DNA from: Candidatus Poribacteria bacterium
GTDB lineage: Bacteria; Poribacteria; WGA-4E; WGA-3G
Direction of reading: 5' to 3'
DNA length: 64,000 nt
Assembly: GCA_965261435.1 (NCBI GenBank)
Contig: CBDHDL010000021.1
Span: forward strand, 4,379,950 to 4,443,949
Shown: piece by piece, positions 5,461 to 47,747 of the stretch
How the letters are laid out: the number at the start of each line of letters is the position of its first letter
Numbering within the stretch: the first letter of the stretch is position 1
The notes under the pieces: generated by a model
What the model saw: the letters and a program-made list of their open reading frames with translations, nothing else
The model's database searches: none
What the model was told of the DNA's origin: nothing
Made by a program: the position numbers and the translations under genes

Positions 5461-6650
5461 TAATAGACCTCTGACATAGATTTCTCAACTATGTTAACAG
5501 CTTCCTCCACATGTGCCGCATTGATGTTTAATGGAGGGAGGAATCGTAGCACATAGTCGTTAGTACATATTGTAACCAATCCGTTTTCAATACACTTTGT
5601 AGCAAGTGGCTTGGCATCCTCTTCCATCACCAGTCCTCGTAATAAACCTTTCCCGCGTACCTCTTTTATTGGATATTTGTCCTTAAGCTCCATAAGTCCG
5701 CCTGCCAAATAGTTCCCCATTTTCACAGCATTGACTGCAAGATTTTCTTCAAAAATCGTTTTGATGGTTGCGACCGCAGCGGCACTTGATAGGAAATTAC
5801 CGCCAAAAGTGGCTGCATGCGTACCAGGAACAAAACTATCAGCTACATTTTGCTTTGCTAACATTGCGCCGATTGGTACACCACTGCCAAGAGCCTTTGC
5901 CATTGTTATTACATCCGGCACTACTCCATAACTTTGGTAACCGAAGAATGTACCTAATCTCCCCATTGCAGTCTGGACTTCATCAAAAATAAGCAGCAGA
6001 TTGTGTTTATCGCAAAGTTCGCGCAACCCTTGAAGGTATCCATCGCTTGGAATATTCACTCCACCTTCAGACTGGATGGGTTCAACTAATAAAGCACAAG
6101 TCTTTTCACTGATAGCATTTTCAGTAGCCTCAAGGTCATCAAATGGAACATATTTAAATCCGTCCAACATCGGTTCAAAACCGATATGATATTTTGTCTG
6201 GGCTGTAGCAGTAATCGTAGCCATCGTTCTCCCATGAAATGAGTTATCCATTGTAATGATTTCATAGGAATCGTTTCTACCACTGTCTTTAGCGTATTTA
6301 CGCGCTATTTTTATCGCCGCTTCATTTGCTTCCGCACCACTATTACAGAAGAAACACTGATCCATATCTGAGTTTTCAATCAACAACTTTGCTAATTCTG
6401 CTTGTGGTTCAATATAGTATAAGTTAGAAGTATGTAGCACTTGACCTGCTTGTTCGCGTATTGCTTCAACAACTTTTGGGTGTGCATGTCCTAAGCCGTT
6501 GACAGCCAACCCGCCCAAGAAGTCAAGATACTTTTTTCCATCTGCATCCCAAAGGTAAGGTCCTTCACCTTTAACAAATGCTAAACTTCTATCACCATAA
6601 GTATTGATGATATATTTTGTTGCAACTGCTTTTATTTCTGATATTGTCAT
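5460..6650 (-). CDS. argD: class III PLP aminotransferase, acetylornithine aminotransferase-like
   Basis: 'GEGPYLWDADGKKYLDFLGGLAVNGLGHAHPKVVEAI...' and 'LIFDEVQTAMGRLG' are typical ArgD/class-III aminotransferase motifs. Confidence 0.75.
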   Translation of the reverse strand: MTISEIKAVATKYIINTYGDRSLAFVKGEGPYLWDADGKKYLDFLGGLAVNGLGHAHPKVVEAIREQAGQVLHTSNLYYIEPQAELAKLLIENSDMDQCFFCNSGAEANEAAIKIARKYAKDSGRNDSYEIITMDNSFHGRTMATITATAQTKYHIGFEPMLDGFKYVPFDDLEATENAISEKTCALLVEPIQSEGGVNIPSDGYLQGLRELCDKHNLLLIFDEVQTAMGRLGTFFGYQSYGVVPDVITMAKALGSGVPIGAMLAKQNVADSFVPGTHAATFGGNFLSSAAAVATIKTIFEENLAVNAVKMGNYLAGGLMELKDKYPIKEVRGKGLLRGLVMEEDAKPLATKCIENGLVTICTNDYVLRFLPPLNINAAHVEEAVNIVEKSMSEVY

Positions 6651-6701
6651 AAGTTATTCTCCTTGTTTCTGTCGCTTCATTTTAAAAAATATGATGCATT
6701 T

Positions 6702-7856
6702 TTACCAATTCGTATAGGAACCGTCATCTCTTTGATAGCCATGGGGCGGTCCATATTCCTGAGTAGTTACATTCTTTAGTGCTTCTTCGTTGAACTCAAT
6801 GCCAAGACCTGGTAATTCTGGAGGCAGTAAATAACCAGATTCAAATGGCACTTGCACAGGGAAAACATCTGTCAGAGATGACATCGGAGCACGTGGTAGT
6901 TCCTGCACGCCAACAAGTGACGAGGCTAAACAGAGATGTAGACACGCCGCAGTAGATACCGGACCAAGTGGATTGTGGGGTGCTAAATGGATATAATGTG
7001 TTTCACACCACCCAGCGATTTTTCGCGCTTCTGTCAGTCCACCTGCAATGCATAAATCTACACGACAGTAATCTAATAGATCCTCTTCAATGACTTCTCT
7101 GAAAGTCCATTTGCTATCAAACTGTTCTCCTACTGCAATCGGGACAGAGGTCTGTTGTCGCAGTCTTCTCAAACTCGCGGGATTCTCACTTCGAAGTGGA
7201 TCTTCTATAAAAAATGGATTGTAAGGTTCAACCATCTTACAGAAATCAAGACTATCCGCTGGATCAAGTCGAGTATGAACATCAACCAGGATGTTGATGT
7301 CATCCCCTAATGCTTCACGAACTGCCTTTACTTGTTCTAATCCATAAGCTACAGCGCGTCTCGGTTCAAAAGTACCTGAGCCACTACCGTCTGCTAATCC
7401 CCATCGTGCAAACTTCCAACCTGCTTCGTATGTTTGTCGACAACTTTCAACAAGTTGCTCAATTGATCCACCACCATTATGTGGATAACAGACTACCTTA
7501 TCCCTCGTCTGTCCACCTAACAATTCATATACAGGAACATTGAGTGCTTTTCCTTTGATGTCCCACAAAGCGATGTCAACAGCACTGACTGCTGCTGATT
7601 GAACTACACCGCCAGGGAAAAAACCGCCACGAAACATTACTTGCCATAGATGTTCAATTTGGAAGGGATTTGCCCCAATGAGAATTGGTTCAAACGAACG
7701 CACAACTTCAGCCAATGCAACTGCCCGTCGTCTAATTCCACCCTCACCGACACCGAAAATACCAGCATCAGTTTCAACTTTAACAAAGAAATGTCCAGAT
7801 GAGGAAACAAAAGACTTTACATTTGTGATTTTCATATAAGATTCCGATTTTACCAT
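6702..7856 (-). CDS. enolase-superfamily enzyme (mandelate racemase / muconate lactonizing enzyme family, sugar-acid dehydratase-like)
   Basis: The 'MKITNVKSFV...VKVETDAGIFGVGEGG' N-terminal capping domain and the barrel-domain acidic residues fit the MR/MLE family. Confidence 0.7.
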   Translation of the reverse strand: MVKSESYMKITNVKSFVSSSGHFFVKVETDAGIFGVGEGGIRRRAVALAEVVRSFEPILIGANPFQIEHLWQVMFRGGFFPGGVVQSAAVSAVDIALWDIKGKALNVPVYELLGGQTRDKVVCYPHNGGGSIEQLVESCRQTYEAGWKFARWGLADGSGSGTFEPRRAVAYGLEQVKAVREALGDDINILVDVHTRLDPADSLDFCKMVEPYNPFFIEDPLRSENPASLRRLRQQTSVPIAVGEQFDSKWTFREVIEEDLLDYCRVDLCIAGGLTEARKIAGWCETHYIHLAPHNPLGPVSTAACLHLCLASSLVGVQELPRAPMSSLTDVFPVQVPFESGYLLPPELPGLGIEFNEEALKNVTTQEYGPPHGYQRDDGSYTNW

Positions 7857-7863
7857 TCAACAG

Positions 7864-8682
7864 TTAAACTGCATCTAAAGTGGGTGTGTTGTCCTGACAA
7901 TAAACAGGTCGGAAGAGTGTCTGCCTCTTGAAGTGCATTTCTTCAACATGCATCGGATGAGGCTTCCATTTGTGCCATTTGTTACCAACGGTGTTATAGC
8001 AGTTGAAAATTGCGACACGATCATAAGTATCATCAGTCCATTTTGCACCTGTATGCGTAATCGCTTCAGTGAAAACTAACATTGAACCTGCTGGACAACT
8101 GTAATCTTCCCACAAGGGTGAAGTCCTGTCTGCTGTTGATTGTGGTGCAGGAAAAGCTCCTTTATGACTCCCGGTTAAGAACATTGTTCCTCCACCACCC
8201 TCTTTAACAGGATTGAGTTCCCAAACAACTCGAGTTAGACCACTATGTGCTCTGTCATGATGTAGGTGATAGGTATGTGAATTACCCGGAAAATTTAGCA
8301 TGCCACGACCACCGTGTGGACGGAAGTTATCGTGACCGTTTCCACGTATGGTAAGAAATGTACCCTCAAACCTAAAACCATAACAATTCTCATTAGAATA
8401 ACCCGATGTTAGGAATTCGTTCATGAAACCTAACACAACAGGATGATCTGTCAAGGATTCTAACGGACCACCGATTGAAGACCGATGATGTTCAGGAATT
8501 GTATCTGGTTCCTTCTGCAATTGATAACAGAACTCACGCATTTCTTTGGTTTCAGTTTCACTTAAGACACCTGGGAATAGAAGCCATCCGCGGGTATCAA
8601 ATAAGAAACGTTGCTCTTCCGAAAGTGGGATTGGTGGAAGATTATCAGCATTCGTCGTAGGATTTGGCATAGAATACTCCAA
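7864..8682 (-). CDS. Fe(II)/2-oxoglutarate dioxygenase, phytanoyl-CoA dioxygenase (PhyH)-like
   Basis: The 'HLHHD' H-x-D motif and overall size are similar to PhyH-family proteins, but the match is weaker than for the other two paralogs in this window. Confidence 0.45.
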   Translation of the reverse strand: MEYSMPNPTTNADNLPPIPLSEEQRFLFDTRGWLLFPGVLSETETKEMREFCYQLQKEPDTIPEHHRSSIGGPLESLTDHPVVLGFMNEFLTSGYSNENCYGFRFEGTFLTIRGNGHDNFRPHGGRGMLNFPGNSHTYHLHHDRAHSGLTRVVWELNPVKEGGGGTMFLTGSHKGAFPAPQSTADRTSPLWEDYSCPAGSMLVFTEAITHTGAKWTDDTYDRVAIFNCYNTVGNKWHKWKPHPMHVEEMHFKRQTLFRPVYCQDNTPTLDAV

Positions 8683-31905: not shown

Positions 31906-33165
31906 ATGGATTCAGATGAGATTATCTCAAATGTGAATACCGCTTCACATCCATCAGAACTGAAAATTACCGACATGCGAATTGTCAGAACGCAGGTGGG
32001 TGGACCTATCCTTAGATTGGACACAAATCAGGATATACATGGTCTTGGAGAAGTGCGTGATGGGGGAAGTCCAACCTACGCTCTGATGCTGAAAAGTCGC
32101 ATCATCGGTGAAAATCCGTGCAATGTTGACAAAATATTTCGTAAGATAAAACAGTTCGGACACCACGCGAGACAAGGGGGAGGTGTCTGTGGAATCGAAA
32201 TGGCGCTAATGGATTTAGCAGGAAAAGCCTATGGTGTTCCATGTTACCAACTTGCAGGTGGAAAATTCAGAGACAAAATAAGATGTTATAGTGATACTCC
32301 TTCTTTAAAAGATGCAGAACAAATGGGGAAAAAACTCCAGGAACGCATTGACAAAGGATTCACATTTTTGAAAATGGATGTAGGTATTGGACTACTTAGC
32401 GGTATCCCGGGGACACTATCAGCACCTGAAGGAAACCTAAGTTCACATAATCTTAAGCATCCTTTTACAGGTATCAGACTGACAGAAAAAGGCATCAACA
32501 TTCTCTGTGAATATGTAGAAACTGTCAGAGAAATAATTGGATATGAAGTACCGCTTGCTGTGGATCATTTCGGTCATATCGGAATTGAAGATTGTATCCG
32601 ACTTGCAAGGTCATTGGAAAAATACAATCTTGCTTGGTTAGAGGATATGGTGCCGTGGCAATATACAGATCAATATGTACGTCTTTCAAACTCCTGTGCC
32701 ACCCCAATCTGTACAGGAGAGGATATCTACTGCAAAGAGGATTTTTTACCACTGTTTGAAAATAGAGCTATCGCAATTTGTCATCCTGATATAGCAACCT
32801 CGGGGGGCATACTGGAAACAAAGAAGATTGGTGATCTTGCGGAAGAACACGGTATTGCAATGGCACTACACATGGCAGGAACACCTGTATGTGCAATGGC
32901 AAGTGTTCATTGTGCTGCAGCAACATCTAATTTTATGGTCTTAGAAAATCATTCTGTAGACAATCCATGGTGGGATGAAATGGTGACCGGATTACCAAAT
33001 CCTATTATCCAAGATGGATACATTGAAGTACCTGAAACACCCGGATTAGGAATTGAACTCAACGAAGAAATAATCAAAGCACATCTTCATTCGGATGAAG
33101 AAGGTTATTTCTTGCCTACAACAGAATGGGATAACGAACGTTCACATGATAGGTTGTGGAGTTAG
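31906..33165 (+). CDS. enolase-superfamily enzyme (MR/MLE family)
   Basis: Capping domain 'LKITDMRIVRTQVGGPILRLDTNQDIHGLGE'. The barrel has 'FLKMDVG', 'LAVDHFG', 'WLEDMV' and 'CTGED'. Its stop (TAG 33163-33165) overlaps the stop of the convergent cassette gene. Confidence 0.75.
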   Translation: MDSDEIISNVNTASHPSELKITDMRIVRTQVGGPILRLDTNQDIHGLGEVRDGGSPTYALMLKSRIIGENPCNVDKIFRKIKQFGHHARQGGGVCGIEMALMDLAGKAYGVPCYQLAGGKFRDKIRCYSDTPSLKDAEQMGKKLQERIDKGFTFLKMDVGIGLLSGIPGTLSAPEGNLSSHNLKHPFTGIRLTEKGINILCEYVETVREIIGYEVPLAVDHFGHIGIEDCIRLARSLEKYNLAWLEDMVPWQYTDQYVRLSNSCATPICTGEDIYCKEDFLPLFENRAIAICHPDIATSGGILETKKIGDLAEEHGIAMALHMAGTPVCAMASVHCAAATSNFMVLENHSVDNPWWDEMVTGLPNPIIQDGYIEVPETPGLGIELNEEIIKAHLHSDEEGYFLPTTEWDNERSHDRLWS

Positions 33166-33734
33166 GTTAGGCCCCTCGCTTTTAGCAGGACATTTGCTAA
33201 ATTTCTTTCATCATTACATTTGCTTTTACTAATGACATATTCACTACCATTAAATCTAATTTTTTCATGCATTAGTTTCCTATATTGTGATTTGTGAGTA
33301 CCACTACCGTGGAATAGAACAGGCACACAAGTTATAATGATCTTTGCTGGAACAACACTTTTCGCGTAATCAGCGCCGCCACGTAGTTGATCTGCCACAT
33401 CTTTTGCGCTTTTAAAAGTACCACCTTTGTTTTCGATTAAAACTATAACAAGTTGATCGCTGTTCGGACAGATGTAAAAGAGTATTTTGTCACAATGTTT
33501 CCCAGTACTTCCACGTGCATTAAAAGCAAGATCAACATCCACTACTACACGCTCAATTGGTAGTCCACTCATGTCAACACTACATTTATTGCTACTGCAG
33601 GAAGATGTTAGATTTTCTTCACCTACCCTCCTTCGTATTTCATTGAGAGTTTCACTCATTTTTATTTTCTGCGTCCTCATTAAGGAATTGCCGTTCAAGA
33701 TCAACGAAAGTATTATATAAGTGATCAGCAACAT
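33162..33734 (-). CDS. small protein with a PD-(D/E)xK-like nuclease motif; putative effector of cassette 1
   Basis: 'RVVVDVDLAF...CDKILFYICPNSDQLVIVLIENKGG' is a D...ExK core. Its start overlaps the ATPase 3' end by ~80 bp. Its paralog at 35325-35873 has the same architecture. Confidence 0.45.
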   Translation of the reverse strand: MLLITYIILSLILNGNSLMRTQKIKMSETLNEIRRRVGEENLTSSCSSNKCSVDMSGLPIERVVVDVDLAFNARGSTGKHCDKILFYICPNSDQLVIVLIENKGGTFKSAKDVADQLRGGADYAKSVVPAKIIITCVPVLFHGSGTHKSQYRKLMHEKIRFNGSEYVISKSKCNDERNLANVLLKARGLT

Positions 33735-35121
33735 CTTCGTAATCTTTCGGCTCTATACCTTCAATGCGATCAAAAGGTATCTCTTCTACAGGTTTATTAG
33801 ATTGAAACCACCATACACCTACTTCTTCTTTTTGCAATTTGTATGGTATTGCACCCGATTCACCATTGTGTTCTTTCAGTTCACCTTCACGAATTAGATT
33901 GGCGATTTGCTGAAGAAGCCAATCGCTATGCGTTGTTATTATCACACGAACTCCAGCTCGGACCAATCGCGCAAGTGCAACAGCAACCTGTGTTTGTGCC
34001 CTTGGATGCAGATGCGCTTCAGGTTCTTCAATGATGAGTGTATCACCAGGATTAACTAAACTTCGAAGGAATATTACTAAGGGGGTAAGTTCTGATACCA
34101 TTGAGGATGTCCTATTCATCTGTATTGCTTGTTTTGAGTGTTTTGGACAGAAAATGAACTGTGGATATCCGACACCAGCATGTCTGTTTACCATTATTTC
34201 CCCTTGCAAGACCTCGTTTTCGAGTATTTTTGATATTTCAGTTATTTCACTTGAAGACCGTTCACGATCATTGTAATTGATGATATGTTTGAGAAAATCC
34301 GCGATCACGCCAGTAAGCATGGAAATTTCTTGTGAGTGTGCCAATCCAGAACGAGTCGCACGATCCACAAGGCCACTTGTTATTACGCCATGTGTTTCCA
34401 TAATTCCACCTTGAATAGAAGGTAGAAAAAATGTATGGTGTCTTGGCAATTCCGACATTGAAATGCCTAATCGTGAAACTAATTCCAATATATCTGCTTC
34501 ATCTTTTGACTTGTCATTATTGCAGTAAGTAAAGACCATATCTTCGTTAATTTTCTTATTCGTAATGATACCAGACGCAGAACTATAACAATTTATAGAC
34601 CACAGAAATTGGCTCTCATCACTAATTCTTACCTCAAAATTCATCTCATCTTCAGAATTATTCGTGAATCTTCTCAATTCTTCTATGAATTCAAGGTCAA
34701 AACACCTTTTGAGTTCGGTTTCAATCACTTTCGAATTTTCCATATCATCTTTCAACAGTTTCTTAACTATCTGAGGTAAATCTGAAAACTTGAATGTTCT
34801 TCCTATAGTATAGAGTTTGTGAAATGCATCATGAATTTCTTTTTTCACACTGTTTGGATTTGGTACGGATTGATCCTGACCGATGTATTTGGATTCAAAA
34901 CTATGTGGAGTAAAGGGTATCCAAGGAATTCTTGAAAATCCCTCAAATGTCTGTTGTAATGCATAGATTAGAGTAGCAAGATATGTCTTACCAGTATTGC
35001 TTTCACCGACAAACACCGTCAGTGGACGCAAATCTATCTCTGCCTTCTCAATTGGTCCAAAGTTCTCTACTGCTATGTTGATGTTTAGGGGTTTTTGCGC
35101 TATCTCTTCGTGCATTGGCAA
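33652..35121 (-). CDS. ABC-type (AAA_15/AAA_21-like, OLD/PtuA/AriA-like) ATPase of cassette 1
   Basis: Walker A 'VFVGESNTGKTYL'; Q-loop region; 'SSMVSELTPL' signature-like; Walker B/D-loop 'TLIIEEPEAHLHPRAQ'; H-loop 'IITTHSDW'. 489 aa. Confidence 0.75.
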   Translation of the reverse strand: MPMHEEIAQKPLNINIAVENFGPIEKAEIDLRPLTVFVGESNTGKTYLATLIYALQQTFEGFSRIPWIPFTPHSFESKYIGQDQSVPNPNSVKKEIHDAFHKLYTIGRTFKFSDLPQIVKKLLKDDMENSKVIETELKRCFDLEFIEELRRFTNNSEDEMNFEVRISDESQFLWSINCYSSASGIITNKKINEDMVFTYCNNDKSKDEADILELVSRLGISMSELPRHHTFFLPSIQGGIMETHGVITSGLVDRATRSGLAHSQEISMLTGVIADFLKHIINYNDRERSSSEITEISKILENEVLQGEIMVNRHAGVGYPQFIFCPKHSKQAIQMNRTSSMVSELTPLVIFLRSLVNPGDTLIIEEPEAHLHPRAQTQVAVALARLVRAGVRVIITTHSDWLLQQIANLIREGELKEHNGESGAIPYKLQKEEVGVWWFQSNKPVEEIPFDRIEGIEPKDYEDVADHLYNTFVDLERQFLNEDAENKNE

Positions 35122-35147
35122 TTCTCCTTTTCAACGTGTATGTAGAC

Positions 35148-35181
35148 TCTATTATACACGAAAAAAAGGGTAACTGCAAGG
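35148..35181 (-). promoter_or_regulatory. near-consensus sigma70 promoter (TTGCAG-17-TATAAT) driving cassette 1
   Basis: Minus-strand reading: cttgcagttaccctttttttcgtgtataatagag, ~30 bp upstream of the ATPase ATG. Conserved at 37308-37341. Confidence 0.6.
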
Positions 35182-35217
35182 TATGAGAATAGGGAATCAC
35201 CAACATGCGTGTTGGCC

Positions 35218-35328
35218 AAACTCAACGAAGAAGTAATCAAAGCACATCTTCACTCGGATGAAGATGGTTATTTCTTGCCTACAACAGATTGGGATTATGA
35301 ACGTTCACATGATAGGTTGTGGAGTTAA
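35218..35328 (+). repeat. ~108-bp diverged copy (~95% identity) of the 3' end of the enolase-superfamily gene (33058-33165)
   Basis: 'ctcaacgaagaagtaatcaaagcacatcttcactcggatgaagatggttatttcttgcctacaacagattgggattatgaacgttcacatgataggttgtggagttaa' versus 33058-33165. The stop overlap with the cassette-2 small gene is the same as at the 33162-33165 junction. Confidence 0.85.
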
Positions 35329-35873
35329 CTTAATAGTTTCTTCTGTAGTATCTTAGATAATTTTCCCCCGCAGCGGGCAGTAATAATTTCAGACGAGATA
35401 CCTTGAAAACTTATTTGTGATTTGATTTTTCTTAGATGTCTTATTTCGGCTCTACTTAAATGATTGTGATACAATATGGGAATGAAAATTGTTTTGATTC
35501 CTGATGAAACAAAACTTGCTGCATAAGCCGCTCCACTTTTTAATTGCATGACAGCCTTATCTGCCTCGGCATTCTTTCCACCTTTGAGTTCTATTGCTAC
35601 AACAACTAGTCTTTCGGATGAATCAAAATAAAAAATAATGCATTCACATTGACTCTTGCTTTGTTGTCCATGTGGAAATACTTTATCTAAATCTACTACA
35701 ACCCGTTCATTTTCTGATACTCCTGTCAAACCTACACTACAATTCCCTCTTTTGAATGAATTTTTTAAAAACAAGCTCTCTTTACCGATCTGTCCTCTTA
35801 TATTCTCTAATACCTCACTCTTGTTCACTCGTGTTAGCTCCTGCATTTTCTCTGAGTGAGGAACGAAGGTCAA
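35325..35873 (-). CDS. small protein with a PD-(D/E)xK-like nuclease motif; putative effector of cassette 2
   Basis: 'RVVVDLDKVF...CECIIFYFDSSERLVVVAIELKGGKN'. Likely true start at the internal Met (MQELTRVNK...). Overlaps the ATPase 3' end. Confidence 0.45.
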   Translation of the reverse strand: MTFVPHSEKMQELTRVNKSEVLENIRGQIGKESLFLKNSFKRGNCSVGLTGVSENERVVVDLDKVFPHGQQSKSQCECIIFYFDSSERLVVVAIELKGGKNAEADKAVMQLKSGAAYAASFVSSGIKTIFIPILYHNHLSRAEIRHLRKIKSQISFQGISSEIITARCGGKLSKILQKKLLS

Positions 35874-37278
35874 CAGAATGATTGTAGAGATCCTCTGCTA
35901 CATTTCCATAGTCAGGTGGTTCTATTCCATTAACAAGATCAAATTTAATCTCCTCTACAGGTTTGTCAGCATGAAACCACCATGCACCAACTTCTTCAGC
36001 AGTCAAATAAGTCGATGAATCTTGTTGTTTCTGCTCCATTCTCATCAATTCACCCTCGCGAACTAAATTACTAATTTGTTCAAGAAACCAATCACTATGT
36101 GTTGTAATTATAACACGAACTCCAGCTCGGACCAATCTCGAAAGTGCAATGGCAACCTGGGTTTGGGCTCTCGGATGCAGATGTGCTTCAGGTTCTTCAA
36201 TGATCAGTGTATCTCCGCATTTTACATATCTTCGCAGATACAAGACTAAAGGAGTAAGTTCTGATACCATTGAAGAGCATTGACTCATTCGAAGTGCAAT
36301 TTCTGATTGTTTTGGATAGTAGAGATACTCAGGATAACTAACTCCAGCAGGCTTGTTTATTTCAATTCTTCCTTGCAAGACTTCGGTTTCAAGGTATTTA
36401 GCAATGAAATCTATCTTATCTGATAAACCTCTAACTTCGTTATAATTGACGATCTGATTCAGAAAATCTACAATCATTCCCGAAAAAGTTGGTATTTCAG
36501 GGTAAAGTTCAAGTCCGACTTTAGTTGTCCGATTGTAGAGAGCCATAGTAATAATACCATGACTTTGCATGATACCACTTCGCGCAGCAGGTAGGTAGTG
36601 TGAACTTTTTTCTTCTCTTCTGTCTATTCGAAATATTCTTCTAAATTCGTCAAAATCAAGCGGCTCATGTCTACTTTTTCTGTTATCAGTATTAATAACC
36701 ATATCTCCGTTAATCAAACCGTATGCTGTGCTACCTGTCCCATTGTTCTGCATATCAAATGACCATAGAGTTTGGTTAACGTCACTAATATTTAGTGAGA
36801 AACTTAAAACATTGTTTGAGTCTCTTGCTGACCGAATTATCTCTGAAATTGTTTCTAAATCGTAATAGAGTCTAAGTTTCTCTTCAATAGAATCAGTTCT
36901 ATTAAGATCGGATTCCAACATAGTACGCACGCGCTCAGGTAAATCTGAGAATTTGAAGGGACGTCCATGAGTGTTTAATTTCTCAAGAATCTCAAAAATT
37001 TCTCTATCAAGTTTTTCCTGGTTTGATACTTTCCGAGCAACTGGACGGTAAGTAAAAGCTATATTTGATTGTAAACGGTGTGACGATGGAAATTGTGTGA
37101 AACCATCAAAACTTTTATGCAATGAATGAATTAGAGTAGCAAGATATGTCTTACCAGTATTGCTTTCACCGACAAACACCGTCAGTGGACGCAGATCTAT
37201 ATCTGCCTTCTCAATCGGTCCGAAGTTTTCAACTGATATGTTGATTTTAAGGGGTTTTTGATCTTTCTCTTCGTGCAC
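35815..37278 (-). CDS. ABC-type (AAA_15/AAA_21-like) ATPase of cassette 2; paralog of 33652-35121
   Basis: Same motifs ('VFVGESNTGKTYL', 'TLIIEEPEAHLHPRAQ', 'IITTHSDW'). N- and C-terminal thirds are ~90% identical at nucleotide level to cassette 1; the middle is diverged. Confidence 0.75.
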   Translation of the reverse strand: MHEEKDQKPLKINISVENFGPIEKADIDLRPLTVFVGESNTGKTYLATLIHSLHKSFDGFTQFPSSHRLQSNIAFTYRPVARKVSNQEKLDREIFEILEKLNTHGRPFKFSDLPERVRTMLESDLNRTDSIEEKLRLYYDLETISEIIRSARDSNNVLSFSLNISDVNQTLWSFDMQNNGTGSTAYGLINGDMVINTDNRKSRHEPLDFDEFRRIFRIDRREEKSSHYLPAARSGIMQSHGIITMALYNRTTKVGLELYPEIPTFSGMIVDFLNQIVNYNEVRGLSDKIDFIAKYLETEVLQGRIEINKPAGVSYPEYLYYPKQSEIALRMSQCSSMVSELTPLVLYLRRYVKCGDTLIIEEPEAHLHPRAQTQVAIALSRLVRAGVRVIITTHSDWFLEQISNLVREGELMRMEQKQQDSSTYLTAEEVGAWWFHADKPVEEIKFDLVNGIEPPDYGNVAEDLYNHSVDLRSSLRENAGANTSEQE

Positions 37279-37307
37279 TGCTAATCCTCCTTTACAAGGT
37301 GGAAGTA

Positions 37308-37341
37308 GATTCTATTATACACGAAAAATAGGGTAACTGCA
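37308..37341 (-). promoter_or_regulatory. near-consensus sigma70 promoter (TTGCAG-17-TATAAT) driving cassette 2
   Basis: 'ccttgcagttaccctatttttcgtgtataatagaatc' on the minus strand; paralogous to 35148-35181. Confidence 0.6.
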
Positions 37342-37359
37342 AGGTATGAGAATAGGAAA

Positions 37360-38328
37360 TTATATCAACGAAACAATCCTTTGATATAGATGTGGAACAG
37401 TGACAGAAAAGTCACCGGAAATATGATAACTTTCTCCACCATCCTTTACTGTTCGTATAAGGATAGTTTTCTTTGGTCGGTGATAGTAATGTGCATCAGT
37501 AGGATTCCCTTCATCCTGAAAATCTGGAAAATCTATGAGATCAAAATTCGCTGTTGTAAATTTTCGTATCTCTTCACCATCCTGTGCTGCAATGTTCCGT
37601 GCCATAGATAAACTCTTCAAATAAACTTCAGGTCCCATTACTGCAGAACCCAAATTAAGAAAGACACCACCTTCTAACTTTGAAATAGTCTCCGCGAAAA
37701 TCAGGAAGTCTCTGCCTGATGTCCAACCGATTGCAGCAAAATCTGCTGCAGGATGCTGATCAGTAATGTCAAATCCAATACCCTTATGGACAGTAATAGG
37801 TACTCCTAAACGATAGGCTGCAGCAAATATGCTCACTTCAAGATGAGGAAATTGAATTTTACTTTCTTGATTCTGTATGAGTCGTCCAATAGCATGACCA
37901 TAACCAATTTTGTCTTGGTGACCTCTAATTATTGCCTCATTCAAATACCTTCCTGTCTCTTCCCAGTTACCGAATTTCCCATCACGTATATAAACTTCAA
38001 CATCTTCAAGCGTTGCCCCTATATGTGCCATCTCAAAATCGTGTATCGCACATGCACCATTTGTTGCAATGTGGGTAATCATACCACGTTTCATTAGATC
38101 AATTATAAAGCGTGAATTACCACGACGCATCACATGTGCACCCATCATCCAAACAACCTGTTTTCTGTTCTGATAGGCTTTGACAATACATTCAGCGACG
38201 ATGTTGAGTCGTTCATTTTCATAACGTGGAATGTCACCATCTAACGCATAGATGTGTTCCACAGTCATCTTGTGTTTACGTTGCGATAGCGGTAGAATTG
38301 TAAGGTGAGAACGATCCAAGTAAGACAT
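37360..38328 (-). CDS. hypothetical protein, possibly deoxyhypusine-synthase-like (DHS-like NAD-binding fold)
   Basis: 'VWMMGAHVMRRGNSRFIIDLMKRGMITHIATNGACAIHDFE' is loosely reminiscent of DHS-family motifs. Weak assignment. Confidence 0.3.
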   Translation of the reverse strand: MSYLDRSHLTILPLSQRKHKMTVEHIYALDGDIPRYENERLNIVAECIVKAYQNRKQVVWMMGAHVMRRGNSRFIIDLMKRGMITHIATNGACAIHDFEMAHIGATLEDVEVYIRDGKFGNWEETGRYLNEAIIRGHQDKIGYGHAIGRLIQNQESKIQFPHLEVSIFAAAYRLGVPITVHKGIGFDITDQHPAADFAAIGWTSGRDFLIFAETISKLEGGVFLNLGSAVMGPEVYLKSLSMARNIAAQDGEEIRKFTTANFDLIDFPDFQDEGNPTDAHYYHRPKKTILIRTVKDGGESYHISGDFSVTVPHLYQRIVSLI

Positions 38329-44954: not shown

Positions 44955-47747
44955 ATGTTGACTTATATTTTGAGGTATACAGTGAAAAAAGCAACATATT
45001 TTCTGCTAATTCAAGTACTCGTCTTTGTATTCTCTTTATCCATTACATTTGGAGAAGATCCATCAAATTGGCATTTACCTGACGGTACAATAGCACGTCT
45101 TGGTAAAGGTAACATCAATAAAATCCAATATTCTCCAGACGGTAAAATCTTGGCTGCGGCAACAGATATAGGAATCTGGTTATATGAAACAGATACATAT
45201 AAAGAAATTGCTTTGCTCGGTGCCCATACTGAAAGTATTAAGACTATAGATTTTAGTGCTGATGGCAGTATACTTGCTTATGATAGTTCTACAAAGGTTG
45301 TATTATGGGATATGGTGAAGCAATCCCAAAAATCAGTCATAGAAGTTTCTAATGATAGGGATGAACTCTGTGTGGCAATTAGTCCTGATGGAAAAACAAT
45401 TGCGTGTGGATCTTATTATGGGACGACAAATCTATATGATGTAGATACAGGTATAATGAAAGCAACATATAGCAGCGAACATAATGTTACGGGTGTAGAT
45501 TTCAGTCCTGATGGTCAATTTCTACTCATAGAAGACACTGACAGTTTAAGAAGTAAATCAATTAGTTTACGCAACGTTTTGACAGGTAAAGAAATCCACA
45601 GTATAAACGTGTCTGATGATGATGTAAACGGTGTTGCGTTTAGTCCGGATGGAAAACTTATTGCATCCACAGGTGAGAAAAAAGATCAACTCTTATTGTG
45701 GAATGCAGAACATGCTTCAGACGATGAACAGAAAAAGATAGTATATTGTTACACATCGTACAGCTTGACATTTAGTCCGGATAGTAAAATGCTTGCTATT
45801 GGACAGTTAGGTGAAGTTTCACTCATTGATCCGAATACTGGCAAACGAATCGGATTCCACACTCCAAATACTGAAGAAGTCATCAGTGTTGCATTTAGTC
45901 CAGATGGCAAAACGCTTGCAAGTGCCACCGACCATCAAATCTATTTATGGGATATTGTCAGGGCACAACCGATAGCTACTTTTAACTCTGAAAGTGATAA
46001 GAATGTAAAAAGTATAGCAATTAGTCCTGATGGCAGTATTATTGCAAGCGGCGGATTTGACGACAGTTTAACACTATGGGATGCTGTAACCAGAGTTAAG
46101 AAGAACAAATTTGAATTTGAAACAGGTGCTGTCAATAATATTGCATTCTCACCAAACGGCAATACAGTTGCAGTTGCAACAAAAGGGGTTGTGCATTTAT
46201 TGGATAGACCTACAGGACAGATGAACCCCTTACGACTTCCACATTTAGGTAGAATTTTTAGTTTGATGTATAGTCCGGATGGGAAAACTCTTGCTTGTAG
46301 TGGTCACAACGGTTTAGTAATCATAATTGATGTTGCTACAGGTAAACAGAGGATGACATTGCGGGGACATGATGATAACGTCAATAGAGTAGTATTTAAT
46401 CCAGAAGGCACTCTACTTGCATCTGGCGGAGACGATGAAAAAGTCATTCTGTGGGACGCTATGACTGGAGAAAAACTACACGTGCACACTGCTTATGATT
46501 CTGAAGTCTGGAGTCTAACATTCAGTCCTGATGGAAACACGATTGCAGTTGGTGGAAGAAGTTATAAAATCGGTCTTTTGGATGTCAAAACGCATGAATA
46601 TTCTAAGATTTCAGACAGAATATCCTCAATAACAGACATGTCATATAGCTCCGATGGAAAAAGTTTAGTAACTTCAAGCATGCGTGGATTACACTTGTGG
46701 GATATGGAAAAAGGAAGGACGATAGCAGCATTTATCGGACACGAAGGCACTGTTACATGTGCAAGATTTAATCCTATAGACGGATCAATCGTCAGTGGAG
46801 GGGTAGATGGAACAGTACGTATGTGGAACAGCATAGGTGGAGGATTCAGAGACATTGCAATAGGTTTCATTGAAGATGTCTCAAGTGTTGCCTACCATCC
46901 AGATGGAAAAACTTTCGCAACGACCGGCGGAAAACATGCTGTAAGACTATGGGATTCAACAACCAATCAACTAAAATCTGTATTTGGATGGGAATGGGCA
47001 CCACAAACAATCGCTTTTAGTCCTAACGGCAATCAGATAGCAACTGCTGGATTGTCAGACGAGGTTAGATTATGGGATGCAAATACAGGAGAACAACTTG
47101 CTGTATTTAAAGAACATACAAAGGCTATTGAAAGTCTTGATTTTAGTCCTGATGGAAAAACTATCGTAAGTGGTGATCGAGATGGATTGGTTGTGATTTG
47201 GGATTTAACCAAGAATGAACAACTCCATATCTTTAAGGGACATCAGAGAGGAAACCGCATTAACTTCTATGAATGGGTAAATGGTGTAGCATTTACTCCT
47301 GATGGACAAAAACTTGCTACTGCAAGTCATGAAGTAATCTTGCTGTGGAACACCACTGATAGAGAATACATAGAAATCAAAGCGGAAAAACCTGGAAATC
47401 AATGTATTGACATCCACCCTTATGGAAGTCTACTTGCTGTTGGCCACTATGATGGAGTCTTTTTGTGGCATGCGACAACTGGCAAGAAAATTGCAAAATT
47501 AGAAGGACACAGCGGCACGGTAATTTCTGTTGCTTTTAGTCCTGATGCAAGATTCCTTGCCAGTGGTGGAGGGGGTTCTGACAATAAGATAATCCTATGG
47601 GATATCACAACGACTCAGGAAATCACTAAATTGTCTGGACATACAGACGGCGTCAGATCTGTTGCATTCAATCCGGATGGTAACACGCTCGTAAGTGGCA
47701 GTTGGGATGGAACAGCACTTATATGGGATATTTCTAAATACAGGTAG
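44955..47747 (+). CDS. WD40/beta-propeller repeat protein (930 aa, ~20 repeats), secreted or membrane-anchored
   Basis: N-terminal hydrophobic segment. Iterated '(A)FSPDGKTLAS...LWD' WD-repeat units throughout. Confidence 0.8.
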   Translation: MLTYILRYTVKKATYFLLIQVLVFVFSLSITFGEDPSNWHLPDGTIARLGKGNINKIQYSPDGKILAAATDIGIWLYETDTYKEIALLGAHTESIKTIDFSADGSILAYDSSTKVVLWDMVKQSQKSVIEVSNDRDELCVAISPDGKTIACGSYYGTTNLYDVDTGIMKATYSSEHNVTGVDFSPDGQFLLIEDTDSLRSKSISLRNVLTGKEIHSINVSDDDVNGVAFSPDGKLIASTGEKKDQLLLWNAEHASDDEQKKIVYCYTSYSLTFSPDSKMLAIGQLGEVSLIDPNTGKRIGFHTPNTEEVISVAFSPDGKTLASATDHQIYLWDIVRAQPIATFNSESDKNVKSIAISPDGSIIASGGFDDSLTLWDAVTRVKKNKFEFETGAVNNIAFSPNGNTVAVATKGVVHLLDRPTGQMNPLRLPHLGRIFSLMYSPDGKTLACSGHNGLVIIIDVATGKQRMTLRGHDDNVNRVVFNPEGTLLASGGDDEKVILWDAMTGEKLHVHTAYDSEVWSLTFSPDGNTIAVGGRSYKIGLLDVKTHEYSKISDRISSITDMSYSSDGKSLVTSSMRGLHLWDMEKGRTIAAFIGHEGTVTCARFNPIDGSIVSGGVDGTVRMWNSIGGGFRDIAIGFIEDVSSVAYHPDGKTFATTGGKHAVRLWDSTTNQLKSVFGWEWAPQTIAFSPNGNQIATAGLSDEVRLWDANTGEQLAVFKEHTKAIESLDFSPDGKTIVSGDRDGLVVIWDLTKNEQLHIFKGHQRGNRINFYEWVNGVAFTPDGQKLATASHEVILLWNTTDREYIEIKAEKPGNQCIDIHPYGSLLAVGHYDGVFLWHATTGKKIAKLEGHSGTVISVAFSPDARFLASGGGGSDNKIILWDITTTQEITKLSGHTDGVRSVAFNPDGNTLVSGSWDGTALIWDISKYR

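Follow-up and report, generated by a model that had tools for sequence, protein, structure and literature searches.

The window analysed here, a 64-kb stretch of DNA from a Candidatus Poribacteria bacterium, contains four open reading frames on the minus strand that form two tandem units, each consisting of an ABC ATPase (A) and a small partner (B). The original prediction read these as paralogous cassettes, and they are: A1 shares 51% identity with A2 over 486 aa (E 9e-167), and B1 shares 31-35% with B2 (E 8e-24).

37314..37342, minus strand: promoter-like element of cassette 2 (TTGCAG, 17 nt, TATAAT), read from the sequence and of putative function
37286-37292, minus strand: Shine-Dalgarno AAGGAGG of cassette 2
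35815..37278, minus strand: A2, 487-aa ABC ATPase of cassette 2, GTG start
35325..35828, minus strand: B2, 167-aa PD-(D/E)xK-like putative nuclease, 'B2 type', GTG start
35219..35327, no strand assigned: 109-bp copy of the 3′ end of the MR_MLE (enolase-superfamily) gene, 93-94.5% identical to the original at 33056-33164
35198..35218, no strand assigned: 21-nt junction TGGCCAACACGCATGTTGGTG (minus strand), boundary of duplicated gene fragment and duplicated promoter
35151..35179, minus strand: promoter-like element of cassette 1, the duplicated copy (TTGCAG, 17 nt, TATAAT, then AAGGAG)
33652..35115, minus strand: A1, 487-aa ABC ATPase of cassette 1, ATG start
33162..33659, minus strand: B1, 165-aa PD-(D/E)xK-like putative nuclease, 'B1 type', ATG start

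For A1, B1 and B2 the gene limits agree with public gene calls. A1 starts at ATG 35115, not at TTG 35121, and its 487-aa product is identical to public call P0215; B1 (MSETL...) starts at ATG 33659 and B2 (MNKSEV...; P0002) at GTG 35828. The ATPases had been put at about 488 aa, close to the final figure, but the partners at about 185 aa, which is too long for both, and the overlaps of 60-80 bp between partner and ATPase stop were an artefact of taking the longest reading frame. B1 overlaps the A1 stop by 8 nt (ATGAGTGA) and B2 the A2 stop by 14 nt; overlaps of this size still allow translational coupling. At its other end B1 converges on the MR_MLE gene, and the two stops overlap by 4 nt.

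Each repeat unit measures 2163-2169 bp. The duplication includes the cassette start (35197-34937 is 87% identical to 37360-37100), the MR_MLE fragment copy sits between the cassettes with a terminator-like hairpin at 35245-35266, and the 21-nt junction is where repeat units join. A strong dedicated promoter had been proposed; what stands is a putative element in front of each cassette with a perfect -10, but the -35 matches at only three of six positions in both, which is why a consensus promoter scan did not list the element. Conservation of the upstream promoter segment does not extend to the loci of other species, which gives the regulatory element no comparative support.

The ATPase and its partner

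Walker A GESNTGKT (aa 37-44), the Walker B/D-loop IIEEPEAHLHP and the H-loop ITTHS can be read in both A1 and A2, and Pfam matches to AAA_15/AAA_21 (AAA_15 E 1.1e-27 for A1 and 1.7e-23 for A2) put both in the ABC class, as first proposed.

37147-37170, minus strand: A2, Walker A
36574-36597, minus strand: A2, YLPAARSG
36259-36276, minus strand: A2, signature-like SSMVSE
36172-36204, minus strand: A2, Walker B/D-loop
36094-36108, minus strand: A2, H-loop
34984-35007, minus strand: A1, Walker A
34405-34428, minus strand: A1, deviant FLPSIQGG
34090-34107, minus strand: A1, SSMVSE
34003-34035, minus strand: A1, Walker B/D-loop
33925-33939, minus strand: A1, H-loop

In the PADLOC model library, which holds defence proteins only, the best matches of A are PD-T4-4_A (PDLC04033; 1.3e-40 for A1 and 3.8e-37 for A2, in two stretches each that cover the head domains), PDC-M47A (3.5e-32 and 4.3e-31), AriA and NsnB. 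The best NCBIfam matches are likewise the defence ATPases PtuA and MAD3, all far under their cut-offs. A structure model of A1 (pLDDT 74.6) finds PtuA of Septu and retrons as the closest solved fold (Foldseek E 5e-11), followed by SMC heads, and PtuA is also the sole sequence relative of A in the PDB (E 1.5e-4).

The partner has a restriction-endonuclease-like fold in its structure model (pLDDT 92), with an alpha-beta-beta-beta-alpha-beta core in which beta3 carries (D/E)xK and an acidic residue stands at the beginning of beta2, so that the structure prediction suggested earlier as a check on a nuclease fold came out in its favour. The core residues of B1 are D43, C56-D57, E76-N-K78 (33420-33437) and Q91, read as HCD57...IE76-N-K78; those of B2 are C61-E62, E80-L-K82 (35577-35594) and Q95, read as QCE62...IE80-L-K82. 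Across 61 homologues of B K78 is invariant and E76 at least 90% conserved, while across 94 wider, diverse relatives E76 is invariant, conservation is 90% or more both at K78 and at the acidic position 57, and Q91 is invariant or nearly so. The core noted from the letters as D...E(L/N)K is D/E...ExK, with D57, E76 and K78 in B1 and E62, E80 and K82 in B2.

Clustered at 50% identity, the B family falls into about 1,300 clusters. It is covered by neither Pfam nor NCBIfam, and a sequence-profile search of the PDB returned nothing meaningful. Neither B1 nor B2 matches PD-T4-4_B in PADLOC at E <= 1, and among the 94 relatives its models are matched by three (PDLC04037) and one (PDLC04034), at E 3e-5 to 6e-4. 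PDC-M47B is matched weakly by B1 (2.4e-4) and B2 (1.9e-4) over 79 of 158 profile positions, and by 42 of the 94, with 2e-8 as the best value in the whole family. For WonA and WonB the comparison set was 15 homologues from Supplement Tables 4 and 5 of PMC12137116. Against these 15 WonB/'novel REase' sequences the B-family profile aligns with 95% probability (hhalign, E 3.9e-8) over 73 core columns only, and hmmsearch scores them at just 12-14 bits. Judged by these profile comparisons, the B family is a divergent sister family of the PD-T4-4, WonAB and PDC-M47 nucleases and a remote homologue of WonB.

Comparison with described systems

The combination of an ABC ATPase with a stand-alone PD-(D/E)xK nuclease was originally thought to be undescribed, but it is the make-up of PD-T4-4 (2022), WonAB (2025), an operon of Krishnan et al. 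2020 and PDC-M47. PD-T4-4 emerged from a selection for anti-phage function in E. coli (Vassallo et al. 2022, PMC9519451), and a review citing that work gives it as an AAA_15 ATPase with a PD-(D/E)xK nuclease (PMC10952713). WonAB, from the V. cholerae WASA-1 prophage, has been dissected experimentally (Adams et al., Nat Microbiol 2025, PMC12137116) and consists of an OLD-family ABC ATPase and a 16-kDa PD-(D/E)xK nuclease, both of which are needed for an abortive, lysis-independent defence with translation shut-off. The operon of 'OLD-ABC ATPase + novel REase' is an in-silico prediction by Krishnan et al. 2020, which PMC12137116 relays. PDC-M47 is a phage defence candidate of PADLOC-DB v2 obtained by guilt-by-embedding and is computational only (Payne et al. 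bioRxiv 2024.01.29.577857).

PD-T4-4_A is the top PADLOC match of both A1 and A2, and the two systems share their domain classes. A confident PADLOC match to a described system had been named at the outset as refuting the proposal; the ATPase gives one and the nuclease does not, B being a divergent relative. PD-T4-4 also lies in an ICE-like defence locus, where the Poribacteria pair does not. DNA cleavage by PD-T4-4 was not seen in vitro, so that even in this closest validated relative DNA nuclease activity is putative. PDC-M47 is the only catalogued system with models for both A and B that match these proteins, but the weak, partial matches of B indicate a sister family, with no clear membership.

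WonAB resembles the cassettes in being a two-gene operon in which the gene for a small stand-alone PD-(D/E)xK protein of about 140-170 aa comes after that for an ABC ATPase of about 450-500 aa. The ATPase motifs G..GK(S/T), (I/L)PAxRS, (I/F)IEEPEAHL.P and (I/L)TTHS agree, and all WonA-type motifs are found in A2 and, except for one arginine, in A1 (as compared with the WonA homologues of PMC12137116 Suppl. Table 4). The hhalign alignment superposes the same nuclease core, CD...(I/V)ELKG...Q, with the Cys that precedes the catalytic Asp, and K78 of B1 falls on the ExK lysine at the position of WonB K71, where K71A is an inactivating substitution (PMC12137116). With the low scores given above, B probably stands outside WonB at the sequence level, however, and it has an extra N-terminal helix and conserved C26, H117 and C148 and lacks the WonB 'VDGC' motif. 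The signature is SSMVSE here and SSGQQE there, the inserts of A are unrelated, and WonAB is prophage-borne, whereas the pair belongs to the chromosome of a sponge-symbiont lineage, where it is syntenic, and occurs here as two types in tandem.

Other known pairings were rejected. Septu and retron PtuAB also join an ABC ATPase to a separate small nuclease, but that nuclease is HNH, whereas B has the restriction-endonuclease-like fold and no HNH match in Pfam, and the NCBIfam PtuA model gives 30.6 bits, the cut-off being 500. OLD, Gabija and PARIS fail on the lack of a Toprim or DUF4435 match in A or B (Pfam), the matches to Old, GajA and AriA spanning the ATPase head only. HEC-02 (NERD) has a mismatched partner domain, and a retron-type arrangement finds no Rfam RNA family in the region and no reverse transcriptase or ncRNA nearby. 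The locus is very probably of an already described system type (PD-T4-4/WonAB) and no new kind.

Conservation and variation of the locus

A lies directly upstream of B in all 33 loci from Poribacteria and Alphaproteobacteria MAGs, and also in two distant metagenomic members, so that the gene-neighbourhood check called for at the outset shows the pair to be co-conserved. A scan of 185,579 species genomes gave 32 loci, the family being confined to a subset of genomes. The MR_MLE/M14/RraA block adjoins the pair in about 20 of 33 loci, and a common upstream block in 17. Many Poribacteria have the pair at a largely syntenic position, which is uncommon in mobile defence genes. A tblastn search with A1 gave no plasmid match, and in phages only a marginal match to the ATPase head, in three Vibrio phage records.

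One or two cassettes are found between the same flanks, and the copy number differs among close relatives. Copies are decayed in L001, L019 and L021, being pseudogenised or disrupted by IS; in L001 A is broken and B apparently intact. A is about 50% identical between species in which the flanking MR_MLE and RraA are about 90% identical, and the inserts of A are highly divergent, at 25-45% identity. In copy number, decay and the divergence of A relative to its flanks the locus varies as conflict systems do. The neighbours are all housekeeping or metabolic genes in the window, and housekeeping, metabolic or repeat proteins in other species; no further defence or mobile-element genes were found within the 64 kb. 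The neighbourhood is not a defence island. Of the hypervariable insertion hotspot that had been proposed, the copy-number variation and synteny breaks hold, but the neighbours do not fit.

The two B types are alternatives at one site in Poribacteria. Among 35 A-B pairs co-variation with B type is confined to residues ~400-487 of A (+0.10 to +0.16), as against +0.00 to +0.04 for residues 1-400. Two natural chimeras are reciprocal: L038 has an A2-like body with an A1-like tail and B1, and L037 has an A1-like body with an A2-like tail and B2. Their breakpoints fall at A residues ~360-400, and tail and B stay together, which shows that sensor bodies and tail-plus-nuclease modules reassort. Both observations fit the model of WonAB, in which WonB is docked on the C-terminal extensions of WonA (PMC12137116), and are indirect evidence that B may be attached to the C-terminal extension of A.

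Interpretation

We think it probable that each cassette is a two-gene system against phages or other mobile elements, of the class in which an ABC-ATPase sensor governs a PD-(D/E)xK nuclease effector (PD-T4-4, WonAB). The anti-phage link first suggested for the locus is strengthened in that the top family matches of the pair, among the PADLOC defence models, are anti-phage proteins. By analogy with WonAB, A would dimerise through its ABC head and hold nuclease B by its C-terminal ~95 residues, and the variable inserts of A, at about residues 46-345, would sense an infection cue. ATP binding or hydrolysis by A would then license B to cut nucleic acid, possibly RNA and not chromosomal DNA, and growth of cell and virus would halt in an abortive infection. 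The two cassettes would represent two long-separated nuclease types, B1 and B2, and recombination in the conserved stretch from Walker B to H-loop would reassort ATPase bodies with modules of tail and nuclease.

A housekeeping pair for DNA maintenance or repair, in which the ATPase recruits a structure-specific nuclease in the style of SbcCD, RecF/RecN or NucS and is inherited vertically in Poribacteria, would suit the conserved adjoining blocks, the position of the pair beside SMC in the window, the lack of mobile-element or defence neighbours, and the SMC heads and NucS among the fold-search matches. We consider it quite improbable, because copy number changes between close relatives, copies are pseudogenised or IS-disrupted, the inserts of A diverge strongly, one site takes two alternative nuclease types, only a subset of the scanned genomes has the family, and the leading PADLOC (from its defence-only library) and NCBIfam matches are defence ATPases, those of NCBIfam far under cut-off. 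A selfish toxin-antitoxin or addiction module, with a nuclease toxin restrained by the ATPase and no role in phage defence, seems very improbable, even though Pfam names AAA_21 a 'putative AbiEii toxin, Type IV TA system', the overlapping reading frames are tightly coupled, and over-production of WonB is highly toxic (PMC12137116). That toxicity needs WonA and its ATPase activity, contrary to an antitoxin role (PMC12137116); the pair is chromosomal and syntenic and not on plasmids or prophages; and the L001 copy would be lethal in a simple model of this kind.

It is also conceivable, if unlikely, that only cassette 2 functions and that A1-B1 is decaying or neofunctionalised through loss of the essential PAxRS arginine. 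The position is Q in A1 (FLPSIQGG), R in 59 of 65 homologues, and R or K in all 34 other locus orthologues, and the aligned substitution R182A in WonA abolishes WonAB defence (PMC12137116), so cassette 1 may be impaired; second cassettes are decaying in L001, L019 and L021. Against this, A1 and B1 are full-length with all other motifs intact, cassette 1 retains its own promoter-like element and Shine-Dalgarno, and the same Q in P0216 (FLPAIQGG), a 76%-identical relative, suggests that it is tolerated. Q is the canonical residue of the ABC Q-loop, with which we take the A1 motif to coincide.

A bolder extension of the sensor-effector reading, which we hold tentatively and with some doubt, is that the locus is a mix-and-match array and the B family a distinct, uncharacterised effector clade. 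Two old modules, B1 or B2 with its matching ~95-residue tail, may have recombined repeatedly with different sensor bodies through crossovers in the near-identical Walker B-to-H-loop segment, and B, with its conserved Cys/Cys/His/Cys, may be metal-binding, with RNA and not DNA as its possible target. If true, tandem arrays would be a generator of new sensor-effector combinations.

As a probable anti-phage pair, the locus widens the PD-T4-4/WonAB immune class, which would now take in uncultivated sponge symbionts and a sister family of nucleases that is large and unannotated. The natural chimeras place the border between sensor and effector-docking tail at A residues ~360-400, a boundary that helps the study of how sensing is coupled to the nuclease and the engineering of swaps.

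Gene layout and the mosaic repeat

Two cassettes, each an ABC ATPase gene (A) followed by the gene of a small PD-(D/E)xK-like partner (B), lie head to tail on the minus strand, flanked by the gene of a 322-aa protein (37360-38328) and by an MR_MLE gene (31906-33165). The original prediction is confirmed with corrections: every motif that it quoted is present in the sequence, but its ATPase/partner overlaps of 60-80 bp were a product of longest-ORF starts. Our lengths for the A1 and B genes are exactly those of public calls P0215, P0001 and P0002 for the same sequences, so the overlap between B gene and ATPase stop is 8 nt (ATGAGTGA) in cassette 1 and 14 nt in cassette 2.

31906-33165, plus strand: MR_MLE (enolase superfamily), convergent to the cassettes
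33162-33659, minus strand: B1, 165 aa, partner of cassette 1
33652-35115, minus strand: A1, 487 aa, ABC ATPase of cassette 1
35325-35828, minus strand: B2, 167 aa, partner of cassette 2
35815-37278, minus strand: A2, 487 aa, ABC ATPase of cassette 2
37360-38328, minus strand: 322-aa ORF of unassigned function, directly upstream of cassette 2

The stops of B1 (minus strand) and MR_MLE (plus strand) share 4 nt, 33162-33165 (TTAG/CTAA); there is therefore no intergenic terminator between these convergent genes.

A1 and A2 are 51% identical and B1 and B2 31-35%, and this divergence is distributed unevenly. The repeat unit, of ~2165 bp, holds a promoter-like TTGCAG-17-TATAAT, which is a putative promoter in each cassette, and a strong Shine-Dalgarno sequence (87% identity between copies), and it includes the first ~60 codons of A and the C-terminal third of A (70% nucleotide identity). 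Between the two cassettes no nucleotide similarity can be detected in the middle of A or anywhere in B. Such a mosaic is not what simple duplication in place with uniform drift thereafter would leave; it fits the recombination of two alleles, long separated, with conserved ends in common. As a further part of the unit, the inter-cassette spacer (35198-35327) carries a 109-bp copy of the MR_MLE 3′ end (94.5% identity) beside a 21-nt junction, and possibly arose when a circularised or unequal-crossover allelic segment integrated through homology in the promoter and 5′ part of A. The 21-nt junction is partly palindromic.

Distribution, synteny and decay

A word-indexed search yielded 65 B homologues, the few with a source name being from Candidatus Poribacteria. 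A genome scan placed 32 loci in 27 Poribacteria, four Alphaproteobacteria and one unclassified MAG; with L001, a further Poribacteria locus, 33 were examined, and an A homologue directly precedes B in every one (33/33). Two distant B members could be located on contigs; there too an A homologue lies directly before B, the genes overlapping by 4 nt and 1 nt.

Neighbours in the window are genes for SMC, a ComF-like phosphoribosyltransferase, a DUF547 protein, a GFO/IDH oxidoreductase, a 930-aa WD40 protein, a TonB-dependent receptor, MR_MLE, an M14 peptidase and an RraA-like protein; the cassettes have no further genes of defence or mobility around them, so the term 'defence island' does not apply. 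The 930-aa protein (44955-47747) consists almost entirely of WD40 beta-propeller repeats; eukaryote-like repeat proteins of this kind are common in sponge symbionts. At the loci of other species the neighbours are TPP enzymes and Laminin_G, TPR, LRR and glycosidase-like proteins. The WD40 protein and the LRR, TPR and Laminin_G genes of these related loci agree with an origin in Poribacteria. The 322-aa ORF has no Pfam match and recurs only in a close relative (locus L038), between SMC and the cassette, all other loci having a different upstream neighbour.

The cassette site is a synteny breakpoint, where loci retain one flanking block, upstream or downstream, and seldom both, and copy number varies among loci. 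In species pairs whose flanking MR_MLE and RraA are ~90% identical, the identity of A and of B is ~50-60%, the M14 peptidase likewise being just ~57% identical. Decaying copies, either second or only ones, are found at three other Poribacteria loci: a B1-type gene split by insertion of an IS605-family TnpB (OrfB_IS605 + Cas12f1-like TNB; L019, 8229-9592), a second ATPase broken into two ORFs (L001, 8679-10665) and a frameshifted B gene (L021, 8001-8640).

The ATPase, its partner and related defence systems

A matches Pfam AAA_15/AAA_21, its best PADLOC match is PD-T4-4_A (1e-40), followed by PDC-M47A (3e-32), AriA and NsnB, and its structure model (pLDDT 74.6) is nearest to PtuA of Septu/retrons, with SMC heads second. 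A1 deviates from the family at residues 230-237 (34405-34428), where it reads FLPSIQGG in place of the consensus YLPAARSG. The arginine of this motif is present in 59/65 homologues, and the position is R or K in 34/34 other locus orthologues; the Q that replaces it in A1 aligns with R182 of WonA, the ATPase of the WonAB system, and R182A abolishes WonAB defence (PMC12137116). Because A1 has lost the counterpart of an essential residue, cassette 1 may be altered or impaired. The Q is also kept in P0216, a 76%-identical relative.

B has no match in Pfam or NCBIfam, and its sole PADLOC match is PDC-M47B at 2e-4. A confident model built from 61 homologues (pLDDT 92.1, pTM 0.90) bears out the predicted PD-(D/E)xK-like fold: in C56-D57 (C-E in the B2 type) an invariant Cys precedes the acidic residue, which stands at the beginning of a strand, E76-x-K78 of B1 lies on the next strand and Q91 in the helix that follows. 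E76 does not vary in a set of 94 diverse relatives, and conservation reaches at least 90% at residue 57, K78 and Q91. All 61 homologues carry C26 and C56, and conservation in them is at least 90% for H117 and C148; in the wider set of 94, C26 is again invariant, with at least 90% conservation of C56 and C148. This pattern hints at a candidate structural metal site (C26/C56/H117/C148 of B1). An exhaustive profile search extends the B family to 1317 clusters at E ≤ 1e-3 and 703 at E ≤ 1e-10.

The combination had been taken as undescribed, with partners of such ATPases limited to HNH (Septu) or Toprim (PARIS/OLD) nucleases. PD-(D/E)xK partners are in fact also in the literature, and PD-T4-4 and WonAB share the architecture of this locus. 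PD-T4-4, an AAA_15 ATPase with a PD-(D/E)xK nuclease, came from a functional selection in Escherichia coli (PMC9519451; PMC10952713). WonAB of Vibrio cholerae is an OLD-family ABC ATPase with a 16-kDa PD-(D/E)xK protein, both genes being required; WonB toxicity requires WonA, activation halts translation while genomic DNA stays intact, and WonB was modelled on dimerised C-terminal extensions of WonA (PMC12137116). Its authors link WonAB to an operon that Krishnan et al. 2020 had predicted, 'OLD-ABC ATPase + novel REase', which occurs in 0.96% of genomes (PMC12137116).

We compared the B family with 15 WonB/REase sequences from the supplementary tables of PMC12137116. Profile-profile comparison aligned the catalytic core with 95% probability (E 4e-8), CD...ELKG...Q of B matching the same core of WonB/REase, and the Cys immediately preceding the catalytic Asp is common to both families; profile-sequence scores, however, were only 12-14 bits. 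PDC-M47B models matched 42 of the 94 wider relatives (best 2e-8) and PD-T4-4_B only three. Given this core alignment with low sequence scores and partial matches, B appears to be a divergent sister family inside the same nuclease lineage, and the system looks to be of a known kind, membership of any one named family not being demonstrable. RNA deserves serious consideration as the substrate of B, since PD-T4-4 left DNA uncut in vitro and genomic DNA stays whole under WonAB. A predicted defence role for the cassettes is well supported, as judged from homology and evolutionary behaviour.

Partner types and the ATPase tail

Poribacteria have two B types, named after B1 and B2, with 48-65% identity within a type between species and ~35% across types. 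The same site beside MR_MLE can hold either; four genomes, this one included, have both, the B2-cassette coming before the B1-cassette. Across 35 A-B pairs, A is more similar within than between B types only at residues ~400-487 (identity difference +0.10 to +0.16, against +0.00 to +0.04 for residues 1-400).

Two loci are chimeric. L038, the close relative, has the same flanks (86-88% nucleotide identity) and a single cassette (6551-8498), whose A is A2-like to residue ~390 and A1-like beyond and is followed by a B1-type gene; L037 (112-1735) is its reciprocal, in which a body resembling A1 is joined to an A2-like tail and followed by a B2-type gene. Both breakpoints fall at residues ~360-400, inside the near-invariant IIEEPEAHLHP...ITTHS stretch, and each chimera retains the tail matching its downstream B type. 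One crossover in a tandem array like that of the window, deleting the A2 tail, B2 and the A1 body, could give L038. In tandem loci elsewhere the nucleotide identity of the A copies is 81-97%, while between the B genes no similarity can be detected at the nucleotide level.

Together, the B types, the co-varying tail, the chimeras and the tandem loci identify 'A tail + B' as the unit of inheritance and show that the ATPase bodies are exchangeable. They also lend indirect support to a physical contact between A tail and B, of the kind modelled for WonAB. This natural reassortment of sensor and effector is a modest extra point of interest.
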